64,000 bases of DNA, taken from an uncultured Candidatus Saccharibacteria bacterium (lineage in GTDB: Bacteria; Patescibacteriota; Minisyncoccia; Phycocordibacterales; UBA1006). Positions 863 through 35,803 of the stretch are shown piece after piece (position 1 is the stretch's first letter; the number at the start of each line of letters is the position of its first letter). Under the pieces are notes generated by a model. The model saw only the letters and a list, made by a program, of their open reading frames with translations. It was not told the DNA's origin and searched no databases. The stretch is taken from the NCBI GenBank assembly GCA_964507625.1, contig CAZDPR010000003.1, forward strand, positions 15,101 to 79,100, in the 5' to 3' direction. Both the position numbers and the translations under genes were made by a program.

Positions 863-962
863 AGTTTCAGTATAGCAAAAAACTTAATAATCCAATATAA
901 AATTTATAACTAATAAAAAACCGCACCCTGCATCAGGGGCGGTTATCGAGAAAAATCAGACA

Positions 963-1652
963 CTATTTCACATAGCTATTTTCTGGTTTTTTTGTGAGCG
1001 ATTTTTTCCGAATTTCTTTACGAAAATTTTTTGCTTTTCTCCATAAAGTAAAATATCGGTACATAATCTTTTCCTTTTGATGGATAAGGTTAGATGAATA
1101 CTCGTCAATACCATCAAAATACACCCTCATGTTATCCAGACTGAACAGATCTTCTTCTGGTCCATGATCACAAAACCAAGAATTTTTCAGAATATCTGTG
1201 TATTTTCCTGTTTCTTTGATGAAAATTGCAACCTTGTGTTCCACGAGGTCTTTTGGTTTTTTAGAAACCGGATCTAGTGGTCGATTGAGTACGATGTTTT
1301 GCACTAATTGTGCATACGCGACCAATCGGTCAGACATAATTTCTGGCATGTTCCCAGAATTTTCCTTGAACGCCCGTGCAAACAAAGTTTTAGAATCTTC
1401 GGTAATCAGTACCCAGGAAAGTCCTGGTTTCATCAATTTACCGTTGATAATGCCGGTGTTTACTACGGCACGATAGCCAAGATGCTCAAAAATATACATA
1501 TCCTGGTAATGATGGAGCCCTGTTACCCTGTCGGGAAACTCTTTACCCAAACGTTCAAACTCCCGTTTCTTTTCTTCTACAGAAACGAGTCGGAACCCTA
1601 ATTCCAAAAGTCGTTCACGCAAACTCGTGATGATAGTTGATTCTTTTTTCAT
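963..1652 (-). CDS. Hypothetical protein (229 aa)
   Basis: Long ORF in an AT-rich accessory region with no recognisable motif. Confidence 0.4.
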   Translation of the reverse strand: MKKESTIITSLRERLLELGFRLVSVEEKKREFERLGKEFPDRVTGLHHYQDMYIFEHLGYRAVVNTGIINGKLMKPGLSWVLITEDSKTLFARAFKENSGNMPEIMSDRLVAYAQLVQNIVLNRPLDPVSKKPKDLVEHKVAIFIKETGKYTDILKNSWFCDHGPEEDLFSLDNMRVYFDGIDEYSSNLIHQKEKIMYRYFTLWRKAKNFRKEIRKKSLTKKPENSYVK

Positions 1653-10708: not shown

Positions 10709-12427
10709 TTAGGGATTTTTGAAAAAATCAGGATCATTATTCTGTATCCAATCTAATACTGTTCGCATGGTTCGCGACGCCCCTGTTTCGTTCGTTGATG
10801 GTGCAGTATCCATCATAACTACAAATGCATAGGTTGGATTTTCTGCTGGAAAAAATCCGGTAGTCCATGAATTCATAAATTGATTCCCTCGCCCAACCTG
10901 TGCAGTTCCTGTTTTTGCAGCTACTGACACATACGGAACATTTAATACCTGTGCCGTTCCTCTGGTTACAGTTTCGCGCATAGCGTTTCTGATAATTTGG
11001 TAATTTTTTTCATCAATTCCTGTTACATAGCTAATTTGATTTTCTTGAATTCCCTCTTGATCTAATTGTATGTGAGGAGTGATTAATTTCCCGCTCGTTG
11101 CAATACCACCCACGGCACGTAATAGTTGAAGCATAGATACCTGAAAACCAAACTGCCCAATTGCCGAGTTATAGGTATCTCCCTGTCGCCAGGCACCATC
11201 TTGAAAAGTCTTTAATTTCCATTCTGGCGATGGAATAATTCCCTGTTTATCATTTTCAAGTTCAAACCCGGTCGGCGAACCAAGCCCAAATCGCACCAAA
11301 TAATCATTAATACGAGAAATACCTAATGCTTGTTGATTCCCCAAACCTCCTCCAATCGCATAAAAAAAGGTGTTTACTGATTCGGCAATAGCCGTGTAGA
11401 CATTCGTCGGTCCATGCCCTTCGCGTTTCCAGTCTCGGAATACTTGTGGATTTTCTGGATCCCACCGGTTTGGAATTTCTACTCTCCCTGAACTGAAAAT
11501 AGTCGTTTGCGGGGTGATAACCCCTTCCTGAAGTGCTGCGAGTGCGATGTAAGGTTTTACAGTAGAACCAGGGGTATATAATCCGGAAATAGCTCGATTT
11601 AAATATACCTTGCGAGAATCGTTTGCATACCCACGAATCGTTGCTGTATCTTTTCCTTCAGCGAGGACATTAGCATCGAATTCTGGATAACTGGTCATCG
11701 CAATTAATTCACCTGTTTGCACATTCATGATTAATCCAGCCCCTCCTTGAAACTTACTGGATTCTGCTAAATCTTTAATGGCGTTATATAACGCTGATTG
11801 AATTCCTGAATGAATAGTAGTTGAAAGATTCTTCCCTGGTTCTGAAGGAATCATCATATTTTCTGCAGTAATATTACCGAGCGCATCAACCTCTACTACT
11901 TTACTCCCATTATTCCCTGAAAGATATTCTGAAAATACTTTTTCAATACCTACTTTCCCTTCAATATTTTGTCGCCAGAAAAACCCCGCTTTATCACGAG
12001 TCGGATATCCCACATACCCTAATAGATGACCATACCCACCGCCTTCTTTGTAAGCACGATGGAGAAATGGTTCCCCGTTTGGCGCAGGAATATTCCAAGC
12101 TAATGGGATACCATTACGGTCAAAAACTACCCCACGTTCTGCAAAAATGGGAATTTTTTGTAATCGATTATTTTCTGATAGTGCAAAAAATTTTGCACCC
12201 TGAACAATTTGTACCTGATAGAGCCGAGCAATAAAGGTTATAAACACAACAACAACAACACCAATAAAAATTGACACGGCGCGTTTACTAATTGACTGTT
12301 CGATTACACCTTCGAATTGTTGAGTATTAAATCCAGGCCTATTTTGTGCATCGAGCAACACTTGATCAGGATCAATAAAAGAGTGGGTAATTTTTTTAGG
12401 TCGACGCCCAAAAAGTCTCAATATCAT
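10709..12427 (-). CDS. mrdA: Class B penicillin-binding protein (PBP2/MrdA-like transpeptidase)
   Basis: Contains STVKP (SxxK) and KTGTAQ motifs, with an N-terminal TM anchor. Confidence 0.8.
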   Translation of the reverse strand: MILRLFGRRPKKITHSFIDPDQVLLDAQNRPGFNTQQFEGVIEQSISKRAVSIFIGVVVVVFITFIARLYQVQIVQGAKFFALSENNRLQKIPIFAERGVVFDRNGIPLAWNIPAPNGEPFLHRAYKEGGGYGHLLGYVGYPTRDKAGFFWRQNIEGKVGIEKVFSEYLSGNNGSKVVEVDALGNITAENMMIPSEPGKNLSTTIHSGIQSALYNAIKDLAESSKFQGGAGLIMNVQTGELIAMTSYPEFDANVLAEGKDTATIRGYANDSRKVYLNRAISGLYTPGSTVKPYIALAALQEGVITPQTTIFSSGRVEIPNRWDPENPQVFRDWKREGHGPTNVYTAIAESVNTFFYAIGGGLGNQQALGISRINDYLVRFGLGSPTGFELENDKQGIIPSPEWKLKTFQDGAWRQGDTYNSAIGQFGFQVSMLQLLRAVGGIATSGKLITPHIQLDQEGIQENQISYVTGIDEKNYQIIRNAMRETVTRGTAQVLNVPYVSVAAKTGTAQVGRGNQFMNSWTTGFFPAENPTYAFVVMMDTAPSTNETGASRTMRTVLDWIQNNDPDFFKNP

Positions 12428-29332: not shown

Positions 29333-29360
29333 AAACCTCACGATGGAGGTTTTTTGTTTT
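29331..29360. terminator. Bidirectional terminator (AACCTC-acgatg-GAGGTT)
   Basis: Perfect 6-bp stem flanked by A5 and T5. Confidence 0.7.
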
Positions 29361-29946
29361 TTGTATTCTGTAATTTTCTGAGCTCTGCTTCGAGGCTCGG
29401 AATTTCTTCGTATTTTTCATCATCAACGCAAGATTTTATTTTCTGTTCTAACATTCTTATTTCGTCCGATTGTTCTTGGCAATTTTGATCATCATCATTT
29501 GAATTCTCTTGAGAAACCATATGATATTCAAACTCTGTAAAGATAATATATGCGTTGGACGAATAGTGAGACTCTTTTCTAAAACAAGAATAATTTTCAA
29601 GAAAAGGTAGATCAAAAATTCCTGGATCAATTTTTGAAAAATCAATATCAAAATCGTACTCTGATAAGCCTGAACTTAATCTTTTTACTGGAACAACTAT
29701 TTCTTGTTCTCCTAAAATATCGTCTAAATCGTACACTTCAGTAAAAATTGAAAGCATTACACACCTATCAGTAAATATAAAATCATAGATGGATAGAAAT
29801 CTTGTACTCCCAATTTCCATATTTTTGATGCAATGATGATCAAAAGTAACCGGAATTTTTCCTCTAATCATGACACTTGTGTTTTTATGGTGAAGAAATT
29901 TATTTACTTTCAAATTAACAAATATTATTAGAATAGTCAATTCCAA
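29338..29946 (-). CDS. Hypothetical protein (202 aa, acidic C-terminus)
   Basis: ORF only. Confidence 0.4.
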   Translation of the reverse strand: MELTILIIFVNLKVNKFLHHKNTSVMIRGKIPVTFDHHCIKNMEIGSTRFLSIYDFIFTDRCVMLSIFTEVYDLDDILGEQEIVVPVKRLSSGLSEYDFDIDFSKIDPGIFDLPFLENYSCFRKESHYSSNAYIIFTEFEYHMVSQENSNDDDQNCQEQSDEIRMLEQKIKSCVDDEKYEEIPSLEAELRKLQNTKNKKPPS

Positions 29947-30108: not shown

Positions 30109-30459
30109 TCATGAGTGAGACTTAATACTGTTCTCTCTTTTTATTTTTCTAGCAAGTTGGCAGTTTTTTATCGCTTCATCAAATTGAGACCCTAGCACTT
30201 CACGAAACCTCTTCCATTGAGAATCCCAAGAGTCTGAATACCCTGCTATGTAAGCAAAATCTGAACGAACTGATTCACGAGGATCTGGATGATCAGGTTC
30301 TTCCCCTTTTCTTATTTCAGTCAGTTCTGAGAAGAATTTTAGAATATCTTCATCTTGTGTCAATAACCCAAAACCTATAAATATAGGATTATTATCTGGA
30401 TAAAGTTCTTCAATTTGAGGAATAATTGGTTTAGTTTTATCTACTACAAATTTCTCCAT
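30109..30459 (-). CDS. Hypothetical protein (116 aa)
   Basis: ORF; terminator hairpin ATCCGC/GCGGAT at about 30058-30085. An upstream 8-bp hairpin lies at 30487-30523. Confidence 0.4.
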   Translation of the reverse strand: MEKFVVDKTKPIIPQIEELYPDNNPIFIGFGLLTQDEDILKFFSELTEIRKGEEPDHPDPRESVRSDFAYIAGYSDSWDSQWKRFREVLGSQFDEAIKNCQLARKIKRENSIKSHS

Positions 30460-30603
30460 TTTTTATGATTTAATTATTTTGCAATACTGCTCTCTAAGAA
30501 TTAATAAATCACGCCCAGAGAGCAATATACAAAACGAATCAAATACAATATAAAAGAACTGTATTATATCAATATAATATATTTCTTTTATATTTTGTCA
30601 AGG

Positions 30604-30676
30604 TGGACCCTAGCGGATTCGAACCGCTGACCTCCTCAGTGCAAGTGAGGCGCTCTACCAACTAAGCTAAGGGCCC
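30604..30676 (-). tRNA. trnA: tRNA-Ala (anticodon UGC)
   Basis: GGGCCCT acceptor stem with the G3:U70 Ala identity pair. Anticodon loop CTTGCAC. T-arm AGCGG-TTCGAAT-CCGCT. Confidence 0.9.
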
Positions 30677-30680
30677 AGGT

Positions 30681-30783
30681 GCGAACCTTATCAATACCAC
30701 GGCAACCGTGGTGTTTCTACATCGTAGAAACTTTGGTTCGCTCAGGTTATCTGGCAATAGACGAGCTATTTTCAGGTAACCTG
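30681..30783 (-). ncRNA. Candidate structured small RNA fused upstream of tRNA-Ala (strand inferred from the promoter)
   Basis: Domain 1: a 7-bp outer stem GCGAACC/GGTTCGC (30681-30687 / 30735-30741) encloses two adjacent perfect hairpins, CCACGG-caa-CCGTGG (30697-30711) and GTTTCTAC-atc-GTAGAAAC (30713-30731). Domain 2: stem CAGGTTA/TAACCTG (30743-30749 / 30777-30783) encloses AATAG-acgag-CTATT. A consensus promoter lies just beyond it (see next feature). Confidence 0.35.
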
Positions 30784-30807
30784 TGATCGTAAGAACAATC
30801 TAGAATA

Positions 30808-30835
30808 ATTATAATCAAAGAATGATTTTTTGCAA
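30808..30835 (-). promoter_or_regulatory. Consensus sigma70 promoter TTGCAA-16-TATAAT reading into the structured RNA and tRNA-Ala
   Basis: On the minus strand the -35 is at 30835-30830 and the -10 at 30813-30808. The predicted TSS is near 30800, about 17 nt before the structured region. Confidence 0.5.
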
Positions 30836-30939
30836 GTCATTAGACCAAATAAAATATTTTTTATCAAGATGTCATGTATGATAGAATATCCTTACCGGGT
30901 CGTCACCGGAATGTATATAGTTTGTCTATTATTTTTATG

Positions 30940-31305
30940 AACACTTCGAATAGTATTATGATTCTTGTTGGTATTATAGGAGCTTTGGTTATTGGTTTTT
31001 TTCTTGGAAAAGGTTCTGGTATGTCAAAAATGCATCAGGAAATGATGTCAGGAGATACATCAATGCATAGCATGATGATGGATATGACTGCATCATTACA
31101 AGGAAAAACAGGTGCGGAATTTGATCGAGCATTCCTCGCAGAAATGATTATTCATCATGAAGGAGCAGTGGATATGGCTAAAATGGTATTAGAACAATCA
31201 GATCGACCAGAACTCCAACAATTAGCAAATGAAATTATTACCGCACAAGAAAAAGAAATTGACCAAATGAAAAACTGGCAAAAAGAATGGTTCTCAGCTG
31301 AATAA
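30940..31305 (+). CDS. DUF305 family protein (four-helix-bundle, metal-binding type) with N-terminal TM anchor
   Basis: DRAFLAEMIIHHEGAVDMAKMVL...IITAQEKEIDQMKNWQKEW is the classic DUF305 signature. The ORF opens at 30874; the likely start is MNTSNS at 30940. Confidence 0.75.
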   Translation, partial: NTSNSIMILVGIIGALVIGFFLGKGSGMSKMHQEMMSGDTSMHSMMMDMTASLQGKTGAEFDRAFLAEMIIHHEGAVDMAKMVLEQSDRPELQQLANEIITAQEKEIDQMKNWQKEWFSAE

Positions 31306-35639: not shown

Positions 35640-35727
35640 AATTATATTTTTTATTATCTAATAATATATTTTCAGTATACCATATTTTCTCAAACAAAAA
35701 ACTACCCTTTGGGATAGTTTTTTGTGT

Positions 35728-35803
35728 GGTGCGTGATCCAGGATTCGAACCTGGGGCCTTTCGAGTATCAGTCGAATGCTCTAGCCAGCTGAGCTAATCA
35801 CGC
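35728..35803 (-). tRNA. trnI: tRNA-Ile (anticodon GAU), CCA encoded
   Basis: GCGTGAT acceptor stem; anticodon loop CTGATAC; T-arm CCAGG-TTCGAAT-CCTGG; ends ACCA. Confidence 0.9.

Follow-up and report, generated by a model that had tools for sequence, protein, structure and literature searches.

tRNA-Ala is ordinarily found as the 16S-23S spacer tRNA within rRNA operons, and the boxA element of the lambda nut sites reads CGCUCUUA. In leaders of the boxA/nut type a promoter-proximal, single-stranded, U-rich motif heads a stable-RNA unit and is followed by a hairpin in which the sequence is free and the pairing is kept. The boxA consensus in gammaproteobacteria is GYTCTTTAANA (PMC5725501), and boxA elements are not confined to rRNA operons, being known also upstream of CRISPR arrays and of suhB (PMC5725501, PMC7665894). 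In a different kind of system, 3'ETS-leuZ of E. coli and Salmonella, a short 3' spacer sponges base-pairing small RNAs together with Hfq (PMC6191717, PMC5222698). Here we compare these systems with a structured element that lies directly 5' of tRNA-Ala on the minus strand of the window, by which we mean the whole 64,000-nucleotide stretch of DNA analysed. The DNA sequencing runs SRR13355620 and SRR13355621 contain this genome.

The element is preceded by a sigma-70-type promoter (30808-30835, minus strand; TTGCAA at 30835-30830, a 16-nt spacer, and TATAAT at 30813-30808), which is present as the original prediction described it and matches the consensus at 10 of 12 positions. From the promoter spacing, the transcript is predicted to start at A30801/G30800, giving a leader of about 125 nt (30801-30677, minus strand) whose last helix, P1, ends 4 nt before tRNA-Ala(UGC). 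The gap had been given both as 2 nt and as 4 nt; the second value is the correct one, and the linker that joins P1 to tRNA position +1, where RNase P is expected to cleave, is ACCU (30677-30680, minus strand). The tRNA (30604-30676, minus strand; ARAGORN; Rfam, 71.8 bits) carries the G3:U70 pair, and its 3' CCA is incompletely encoded, with CCT after the discriminator base. Folding of the trailer with RNAfold gave an AT-rich hairpin 3' of the tRNA (30547-30594, minus strand), a possible weak terminator that overlaps a promoter-like site of the next ORF and is weaker than the clear hairpin and U-run terminators found directly 3' of the tRNA in six homologous loci (L247, L251, L252, L137, L130 and L194). 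Since these six loci have terminators after the tRNA and the downstream genes differ or converge, the unit consists of the leader and the tRNA only. Rfam scans of the window and of eight homologous loci found no rRNA, and the leader element is single-copy within the window.

The minimum free energy (MFE) of the leader (30800-30677) is -50.3 kcal/mol, compared with -24.5 +/- 3.3 kcal/mol for shuffled sequences (z = -7.85), and none of 200 shuffles folded as well. The fold has two domains, with a 7-bp closing stem and two hairpins with 3-nt loops, exactly as originally claimed. Domain A (30743-30783, minus strand) is a long, irregular hairpin of 15 pairs, in which CAGGUUA/UAACCUG (30783-30777 with 30749-30743) surrounds CUG/CAG and a 5-bp hairpin. 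Domain B (30681-30741, minus strand) is a three-way junction closed by P1, GCGAACC/GGUUCGC (30741-30735 with 30687-30681), and contains H1, an 8-bp hairpin with the loop GAU (30731-30713), and H2, a 7-bp hairpin with the loop UUG (30712-30696); the junction strands are J1, AAA, and J3, AUUGAUAA (30695-30688). All pairs of these two domains in the window copy are Watson-Crick, and its helices alone therefore cannot give the strand of the RNA. The sole G-U pair lies in P0, a weak hairpin of the MFE fold (GAUUGU-UCUU-ACGAUC, 30785-30800, minus strand) that overlaps a motif at the 5' end of the leader. P0 is doubtful as a helix: in the formal covariation count none of its pairs is changed on both sides, it is broken in L251 and L194, and what seems to be conserved at this position is sequence rather than pairing.

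Eight further distinct homologues were identified in metagenome and MAG contigs (L250, L247, L251, L252, L228, L137, L130 and L194). In all nine distinct sequences, the window included, the element lies directly 5' of tRNA-Ala, on the tRNA strand and behind the conserved promoter, and a covariance model run over about 940 kb of related loci matched at these positions only, never away from tRNA-Ala. The hexamers TTGCAA and TATAAT recur at equal distance in L250, L247, L251, L252, L228 and L137, with the variants TTGCAA/TATACT in L194 and TTGCCA/TATAAC in L130; the identity of the promoter to that of the window is 82-97%, versus 49-66% in the spacer upstream of it. Judging by these contigs, the phylogenetic range of the element is one lineage of Patescibacteria (CPR). 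Searches by other routes covered synteny and viral contigs. Nine loci (L001-L009) share mraZ-rsmH-ftsL-ftsI with the window and have no tRNA-Ala after ftsI, so the ftsI-synteny scan gave no homologue. Within viral contigs a 28-mer of the tRNA had no match, GCGAACCAAAG...AAGGTTCGC had one chance match, inside a high-GC coding region, and a 14-mer of the 5' motif had 120 chance matches, none with the right promoter context; the closing-stem pattern returned 115 unrelated matches, many of which may be ordinary tRNAs given its acceptor-like stem.

The formal covariation count, which takes in six of the nine distinct sequences, all from one clade, found 92.9% of cells paired, versus 81.5% in shuffles, and changes on both sides in 17 pairs, versus 8.7 in shuffles, a level reached by none of 500 shuffles. 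Slid-alignment controls gave 2-5 pairs with both-side changes. Domain A has compensatory changes in 10 of 12 pairs at only about 52-54% primary-sequence identity. Five of six pairs are compensated in H1, which ranges in length from 8 to 13 bp across the homologues; in H2 one pair is compensated and two are changed on one side to G-U. Seen by segment, the promoter, the 5' motif and domain B are conserved in sequence, and domain A in pairing only, with P1, J1, the H2 loop and the ...AUAA of J3 near-invariant. Because P1 shows no covariation, its pairing rests on thermodynamics and on the copy in L130, which retains the helix with one U-G pair. L194 has no P1 and forms two hairpins in a row instead, while retaining the 5' motif. 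The linker is 3-4 nt long in all homologues and mostly NCU or NCCU; the distance from P1 to tRNA position +1 is thus 3-4 nt in each of the eight sequences with a junction, where the linkers are ACCU, ACU, ACU, GCCU, CCU, ACUC, UCU and AUA, the final base is U in six, and ACC is not conserved.

Across the nine sequences, 35 G-U pairs occur in the MFE folds, and these identify the tRNA strand as the strand of the RNA. Sense and antisense folding gave -53.0 versus -34.2 for L137 and -47.0 versus -30.9 for L194. No Rfam 15 family matched the window region or seven homologous loci at E<=10, a threshold at which only unrelated, inconsistent chance matches were returned. Taken together, these comparisons make it very probable that the leader is a real, selected RNA structure on the minus strand, co-transcribed with tRNA-Ala. 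What stands of the original prediction of an undescribed RNA fused to tRNA-Ala is thus a conserved, covarying, promoter-driven structure on the minus strand; its suggestions of a tRNA-like element and of a plus-strand leader do not stand, as set out below.

On balance, we favor the view that the element is a clade-specific structured 5' leader of a single-gene unit comprising promoter, leader of about 125 nt, tRNA-Ala and terminator, and we lean slightly towards a role that is mainly in cis. The leader consists of the 5' motif GGAYUGUUCUUAC, a hairpin maintained through its pairing, and a three-way junction conserved in sequence, whose end lies 3-4 nt from the tRNA; RNase P, cleaving at tRNA position +1, would release the leader from the tRNA. 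As a boxA-like 5' motif is followed by a hairpin, our best guess is a leader of the rrn/nut type that is removed by RNase P. The motif and hairpin may constitute a boxA/nut-like site as in the leaders of rRNA operons, kept as tRNA-Ala left the rRNA operon to become an independent gene; such a site could load NusB/NusE on RNA polymerase and so support read-through, ordered precursor folding or processing, and the three-way junction may serve as a binding or processing module for some partner. Plain leaders do not usually carry a stable helix as close as 3-4 nt to the RNase P site, which counts against this account.

Consideration of the 5' motif, (A/G)GAYUGUUCUUAC at 30789-30801 (minus strand), gives insight into how far the likeness to boxA extends. 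The motif is 86-100% identical in the four homologues compared (L250, L247, L251 and L252) and is confined to the leader 5' position in 940 kb of related loci; in all homologues it occupies +4 to +13 of the transcript and is followed by the covarying hairpin of domain A, which begins at +18 to +20. Its boxA-like core, UGUUCUUAC (30797-30789), resembles the boxA of lambda nutR (CGCUCUUAC, CGCTCTTACACA) and the rrn boxA of L170 (GUUCUUUGACAA, GTTCTTTGACAATAG). With Y allowed at position 2, UGUUCUUACGA equals the first 8 nt of lambda nutR CGCUCUUACACA, and it matches GYUCUU of the gammaproteobacterial consensus (PMC5725501); both matches are short and post hoc. The canonical rrn operon of L170 contains GUUCUUUGACAAUAG twice, and L137 has GUCCUUUGAUCA at the position of the 5' motif, which we compare with GUUCUUUGACAA of the L170 rrn operon.

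As in boxA/nut leaders, the stable-RNA unit here is headed by a U-rich, single-stranded motif close to the promoter, and a hairpin of free sequence and kept pairing comes next. By contrast with those leaders, the motif here starts at about +4 of the transcript, and it diverges from the consensus GYTCTTTAANA (PMC5725501) after UCUU, with UCUUAC where gammaproteobacteria have UCUUUAA. The unit differs from those headed by rrn leaders in comprising one tRNA and no rRNA, and neither nut nor rrn leaders have anything that corresponds to the conserved three-way junction. Further points speak against a functional boxA: the likeness, recognised in retrospect, is limited to 7-8 nt, a highly structured transcript of about 200 nt has little obvious need for antitermination, and the three-way junction and the invariant closing stem are left unexplained. 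NusB was not among the 20 window ORFs scanned (17 small ORFs and three neighbors of the element), although 64 kb is too short a stretch to be informative on this point. We put the 5' motif forward as a candidate boxA, and consider it rather unlikely that it would function as one.

An alternative that we regard as possible, if less than probable, is that the leader is itself a functional RNA of about 125 nt acting in trans, with the tRNA as an RNase P processing signal for its 3' end. Such an RNA could use its single-stranded 5' end as a seed, or could serve a junction-recognising protein as a scaffold or decoy. The distribution of sequence conservation is consistent with this, as it falls where a partner would bind, at the 5' end, P1, J1, J3 and the H2 loop. 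Two further points in its favor are a strong promoter that is itself conserved and a compact, GC-rich fold, which closes at its own 3' end and on this model should resist exonucleases. There is also precedent for functional RNAs cut from tRNA precursors in 3'ETS-leuZ (PMC6191717, PMC5222698). In both cases the RNA is a non-tRNA part of a tRNA primary transcript, is conserved beyond the needs of processing, and would be released by tRNA-processing nucleases; the element described here differs in being a 5' leader and in its elaborate, covarying fold. We know of no small-RNA/Hfq network of the 3'ETS-leuZ type in these organisms. In the 64-kb window, sequences that could pair with the 5' motif show no enrichment (9 matches versus 8.84 expected), and inspection by eye revealed no conserved complementarity of the motif to the tRNA, the trailer, J3 or the DUF305 translation start. 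The constant association of the element with tRNA-Ala fits a role in cis at least as well, and L194 retains the 5' motif and hairpins without the junction. The leader may likewise represent a hitherto unrecognised class of stable, structured non-coding RNA of a Patescibacteria clade, released by RNase P from a leader-tRNA-Ala dicistron, with the invariant junction as the core of an RNP or the leader as a gate for RNase P, a possibility that we raise tentatively; in both cases the tRNA gene would also supply the processing signal of another functional RNA.

Less probable is a gate on tRNA-Ala maturation, in which the three-way junction would bind a protein or small ligand and P1 would thereby control the access of RNase P, as a riboswitch-like or protein-dependent switch; we consider this improbable. 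The constant spacing of P1 from tRNA position +1 in all eight junction-bearing sequences, and junction nucleotides that are near-invariant, like those of aptamer cores, argue for it. Against this, the leader offers no conserved alternative partner to either strand of P1, the P1 helices of most riboswitches covary whereas this one is invariant, and Rfam gave no match to a known aptamer. We know of no bacterial precedent in which a ligand controls cleavage by RNase P.

We attach very little weight to the proposal that the element acts on the plus strand, either as a cis-regulatory leader of the divergent DUF305 gene, as the original prediction suggested, or as a DNA-level palindrome such as a repeat or recombination site. 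The gene (Pfam DUF305/DUF4142; likely start 30937, stop 31305) and its promoter-like site occupy 30861-31305 of the plus strand, and the same divergent layout is seen in seven of the nine loci (the window, L247, L250, L251, L252, L228 and L130); this neighborhood and the entirely Watson-Crick pairing of domains A and B in the window are what such a proposal can draw on. On the plus strand the 35 G-U pairs of the homologues would turn into A-C mismatches, the antisense folds of the divergent members are much weaker, and the compensatory substitutions indicate selection on RNA pairing. The promoter-like site (TTATCA-15-TGaTAGAAT, 30861-30887, plus strand), which recurs in L247, separates the element from the gene; L137 and L194 have the leader with no DUF305 start recognisable at the usual position on reading the sequence, and the element is present in the window as a single copy. 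It is absent from the more distant DUF305 homologue loci P0013, P0018, P0020, P0029, P0028, P0008 and P0024. At one of these distant loci a tRNA-Ser occupies the position of the leader and tRNA-Ala.

The reading of the leader as a degenerate tRNA or tRNA-like element, based on a 7-bp acceptor-like stem followed by ACC, is highly improbable: P1 in the window does have 7 bp and is followed by ACCU, and its 3' strand contains GGUUCG, which resembles GGUUCGA of the T arm, but the tail varies among the homologues, so that no ACC is conserved and the reading fails, the hairpin loops are of 3 nt with no T loop, D arm, anticodon arm or T arm, the leader has no G3:U70 pair, and neither ARAGORN nor Rfam (E<=10) called a tRNA at 30677-30801, with the same Rfam result in seven homologues. 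The element does share with tRNAs and tRNA-like structures (the tRNA-like domain of tmRNA, YrlA and viral TLS) a 7-bp terminal helix beside a multi-helix junction, with GGUUCG in the 3' strand; unlike them, it has no conserved NCCA tail and is not detected by tRNA models.

Domain B also resembles the type II hammerhead, in architecture only: both are three-way junctions with an open closing stem, a 5' junction strand of 3 purines, about 0-1 nt between the hairpins, and a 3' junction strand of 7-8 nt. The hammerhead core is CUGANGA...GAAA, with the catalytic residues G8 and G12. The 3' junction strand of L252, CUGAUAA, approaches CUGANGA, but A stands at the positions equivalent to both catalytic residues, and CUGA is not conserved among the homologues (AUGGAUAA, UUUCAUAA, AUGAUUAA). 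We rejected a hammerhead ribozyme, given junction strands of AAA and (N)UGAUAA (or variants) and no match to any Rfam hammerhead model (E<=10). 5S rRNA, SRP RNA, 6S RNA and riboswitches were rejected as well; their conserved cores are absent and no model matches.

Patescibacteria have tiny genomes with very little non-coding DNA. That a non-coding stretch of 125 nt behind a strong promoter of its own has been retained by selection in nine distinct sequences suggests that in such genomes it is probably functional. The alignment and covariance model from this analysis suffice to seed an RNA family and to design probes. If the element is a boxA-type leader, a spacer tRNA would have kept the loading of Nus factors through the break-up of the rRNA operon, and the leader would provide a first handle on boxA in this phylum. 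If RNase P instead releases it as a stable RNA, the element would add a new case, in bacteria, of a tRNA gene that provides the maturation signal for a second functional RNA.

The tRNA-Ala(UGC) gene on the minus strand of the window (30604-30676; ARAGORN; Rfam RF00005, 71.8 bits) lies directly behind a structured leader. The near-consensus minus-strand promoter of the original prediction, TTGCAA-16 nt-TATAAT, is present at 30835-30808 (hexamers at 30835-30830 and 30813-30808), and a predicted start at 30801/30800, 7-8 nt past the -10 box, gives a leader of 125 nt. The minimum free energy (MFE) fold of this leader is the one that had been proposed by eye, with a weak 5' hairpin (P0, 30800-30785), an irregular hairpin of 15 pairs (domain A, 30783-30743) and a three-way junction (domain B, 30741-30681) closed by the stem P1, GCGAACC/GGUUCGC. 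Within domain B, an arm of 8 bp with the loop GAU (H1) abuts one of 7 bp with the loop UUG (H2); the 5' junction strand (J1) is AAA (3 nt) and the 3' strand (J3) is AUUGAUAA (8 nt). The leader folds at -50.3 kcal/mol, compared with -24.5 +/- 3.3 for dinucleotide shuffles (z = -7.85; 0/200 as stable). The linker to the tRNA is ACCU, a gap of 4 nt rather than the 2 nt first reported. No Rfam 15 family matches the element, even at E<=10, in keeping with the earlier suggestion of an undescribed RNA.

JGI metagenome contigs were scanned with the 28 nt that begin the tRNA, and for 122 tRNA-Ala copies the 5' flank was read. A related leader precedes four of them (loci L137, L228, L130 and L194), exactly the copies that share the anticodon stem of the window tRNA, CCUCACUUGCACUGAGG. 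The divergent upstream gene, DUF305, is syntenic, and its homologues led to four further distinct leaders (L247, L250, L251 and L252; L253 and L254 repeat L252 exactly and were not counted separately), so that nine distinct family members are in hand. The element is absent from the more distant DUF305 loci examined; loci L001-L009 have no tRNA-Ala downstream of ftsI, and gene order there is not conserved. Six leaders were used to build a covariance model, which, run on about 940 kb of fetched Patescibacteria-type loci, matched only the known leader sites, each adjoining tRNA-Ala. The family is restricted to one narrow clade; as the 28-mer misses such variants as L247 and L251, its members are under-sampled.

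Covariation in the stems, on which the case for a selected RNA turned, was found. For six sequences RNAalifold predicted 42 pairs and marked 17 as having compensatory double changes. An explicit count also gave 17 pairs changed on both sides, compared with 8.7 +/- 1.8 in shuffles (0/500) and 2-5 in slid-partner controls; the proportion of cells paired was 92.9%, against 81.5 +/- 1.3% (0/500) and 34-43%, respectively, figures that come from six to nine related sequences and are indicative rather than formal probabilities. Compensated pairs number 10 of 12 in domain A, 5 of 6 in H1 (8-13 bp long across homologues), 1 of 7 in H2 (plus two one-sided G-U changes), 0 of 7 in the invariant P1 and 0 of 6 in P0. 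The primary sequence of domain A is about 52-54% identical, and that of the neutral spacer upstream 49-66%; low identity with retained pairing is hard to explain other than by selected structure.

Across the nine sequences the MFE folds include 35 G-U pairs, and divergent members fold far better as sense than as antisense (-53.0 vs -34.2 kcal/mol for L137, -36.2 vs -28.5 for L130 and -47.0 vs -30.9 for L194), so the RNA is read on the tRNA strand. This strand evidence and the promoter-like site TTATCA-15-TGaTAGAAT (30861-30887; also in L247), which intervenes between the element and the DUF305 gene, exclude the plus-strand DUF305 leader once offered as an alternative. In a simple scan for terminators, the H1 reverse complement, GTTTCTACATCGTAGAAAC, followed by TTTGG (30713-30731, plus strand), is flagged; the flag is a by-product of the minus-strand RNA hairpin and does not point to a plus-strand terminator. 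Downstream of the promoter-like site, in the predicted DUF305 5' UTR, a small CCGG-N(5-8)-CCGG hairpin (30895-30909, plus strand) recurs upstream of DUF305 in L247 and L250 (CCGGTGACGACCCGG, CCGGCATTTTATCCGG, CCGGTATGTCCGG; minus strand) and may serve that gene as a small operator or regulatory element.

Identity to the window is 82-97% in the promoter, 86-100% in nt 1-13 of the transcript, (A/G)GAYUGUUCUUAC, and 73-91% in domain B, where P1, J1 AAA(G), the base of H2 (RCC...GGU) with its UUG loop and J3 ...(G)AUAA are best kept. The most divergent junction-bearing member, L130, keeps P1 with one U-G pair. L194 has two consecutive hairpins in place of the junction and retains the promoter, 5' motif and domain A, so the core conserved most widely is the 5' motif with the hairpin. 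Across homologues, 3-4 nt link the leader to the tRNA (ACCU, ACU, ACU, GCCU, CCU, ACUC, UCU, AUA). We rejected the idea of a degenerate tRNA-like element, an acceptor stem followed by ACC, since the linker varies and the ACC tail, not conserved among homologues, is an accident of the window sequence.

A clear hairpin-plus-U-run terminator lies about 10-40 nt past the tRNA in L247, L251, L252, L137, L130 and L194; the window trailer holds only an AT-rich hairpin (30594-30547). Downstream genes vary (a converging NUDIX gene in L247 and L251, unrelated small ORFs elsewhere), and there is no rRNA near the homologous leader loci scanned. Since terminators adjoin the tRNA, downstream genes differ and rRNA is absent nearby, the unit consists of promoter, leader, tRNA-Ala and terminator. 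A selected RNA structure is thus co-linear with tRNA-Ala behind a conserved promoter, and we infer that the two are co-transcribed and that RNase P cleaves at 30676/30677. RNase P prefers U at -1, the base found there in 6 of 8 junction-bearing sequences. The constant 3-4 nt between junction and cleavage site suggests that the junction could influence, or depend on, this cleavage.

The window (G+C about 36%) carries an mraZ-rsmH-ftsL-ftsI cluster just upstream of the element, and also encodes a RelA/SpoT homologue, ribosomal proteins and many small domain-less ORFs. Between the RelA/SpoT homologue and tRNA-Ala lie minus-strand ORFs of 202 aa (29338-29946) and 116 aa (30109-30459), neither with a Pfam match; the only contigs found to encode the 116-aa protein are two short ones (runs SRR13355620 and SRR13355621), both ending inside the tRNA gene. 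By FtsI, the closest genomes (63-70% identity, and 46% for one more) are MAGs that carry the label Saccharibacteria, Paceibacteria or Patescibacteria. tRNA-Ile(GAU) and tRNA-Ala(UGC) are the classical 16S-23S spacer tRNAs; here they stand alone, 5 kb apart (tRNA-Ile at 35727-35803, minus strand), and Rfam finds no rRNA in the 64-kb window. The tRNA-Ile gene has a promoter and, as its leader, a mere 22 nt without structure; the elaborate leader is thus peculiar to tRNA-Ala. Of the 122 metagenomic tRNA-Ala copies that contain the 28-mer, L170 alone has a match to a conserved 23S 5'-end motif within 1.2 kb downstream. A preprint describes unlinked rRNA genes as widespread in Bacteria and Archaea and also mentions Patescibacteria (bioRxiv 10.1101/705046).

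The 5' motif is the one functional lead with outside support. The leader's UGUUCUUACGAUCA(hairpin) resembles lambda nutR, CGCUCUUACACAUUCCA(boxB hairpin) (NC_001416), and its 5' motif also resembles the boxA of L170, the only canonical rRNA operon among the fetched loci, where boxA occurs twice (GUUCUUUGACAAUAG upstream of 16S and GUUGUUUGACAAUAG between tRNA-Ala and 23S). L137 has GUCCUUUGAUCA at this position. The gammaproteobacterial boxA consensus is GYTCTTTAANA, and boxA drifts with phylogenetic distance and is found outside rRNA operons too (PMC5725501, PMC7665894). On these sequence likenesses we propose that the element may be an rrn/nut-type leader, kept by tRNA-Ala on fragmentation of the rRNA operon, that would load NusB/NusE and partners so that the nascent precursor is protected and chaperoned. 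We regard this proposal as rather doubtful, because the 5'-motif match is short and was found post hoc, a structured 200-nt transcript barely needs antitermination, and the invariant three-way junction is unaccounted for.

With P1 and the junction bases invariant, the junction has the look of a site that a protein or a second RNA recognises. The original prediction, in which RNase P frees a stable RNA that acts in trans, is possible without being probable; the data are fully compatible with it, and functional tRNA-precursor fragments such as 3'ETS-leuZ are a precedent (PMC6191717, PMC5222698). A processing switch at the three-way junction strikes us as improbable. We give almost no credence to the tRNA-like, plus-strand-leader and DNA-repeat readings, all of which are contradicted (the element occurs once in the window). 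The likeness to the layout of a type II hammerhead is superficial (J3 of L252 is CUGAUAA), and that reading was rejected: A stands at the catalytic G positions, the core is unconserved and no Rfam model matches.

We found no description of the element in the literature searched, which concerned boxA, the way rRNA operons are organised and candidate structured RNAs. Structured leaders close to the promoter of a stable-RNA gene, which may carry boxA, are a kind with precedents; a covarying hairpin with an invariant three-way junction, joined in Patescibacteria to a tRNA-Ala that stands alone, appears to be undescribed.

Other structures occur around these genes. In a more distant relative, L260, the intergenic slot between NUDIX and DUF305 genes that elsewhere holds leader and tRNA-Ala is filled by a GC-rich, structured-looking stretch of about 130 nt (~890-1015, minus strand; GTTGGCTCCGCGAGTAGGATTGCAAACC...CCTACTCTCTC); the slot has no tRNA and no Rfam match at gathering score, and the stretch may be another unannotated RNA. 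Several Patescibacteria-type contigs carry, in the 5' flank about 100 nt upstream of an intact tRNA-Ala, a partial copy of its 5' end, GGGCCCTTAGCTTAG..., with inserted hairpins (L180 ~2890-2985, L242, L168, L177); these could be duplication or insertion remnants, or a different tRNA-derived leader. In L190, L213 and L237 a tRNA-Ala copy breaks just past the start of the anticodon loop, after GCATTTG, and continues as TCCCGAAAAATAATG...; an intact copy lies about 300 nt downstream in L190 (matches at 11868-11895 and 11545-11572, minus strand) and L213, and an intact tRNA near the match in L237. The break looks as if a mobile element or intron-like sequence had inserted and regenerated the tRNA; Rfam detects no intron family at these loci at gathering score. 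In another lineage (L139, L140, L146) a terminator-like hairpin, AAAAATGAGCCCCCGGCTCATTTTT, abuts +1 of tRNA-Ala, and distinct hairpins stand 5' of tRNA-Ala in the lineages L132/L214 and L173/L183/L208/L230. These bacteria seem repeatedly to have structured sequence directly 5' of tRNA-Ala.
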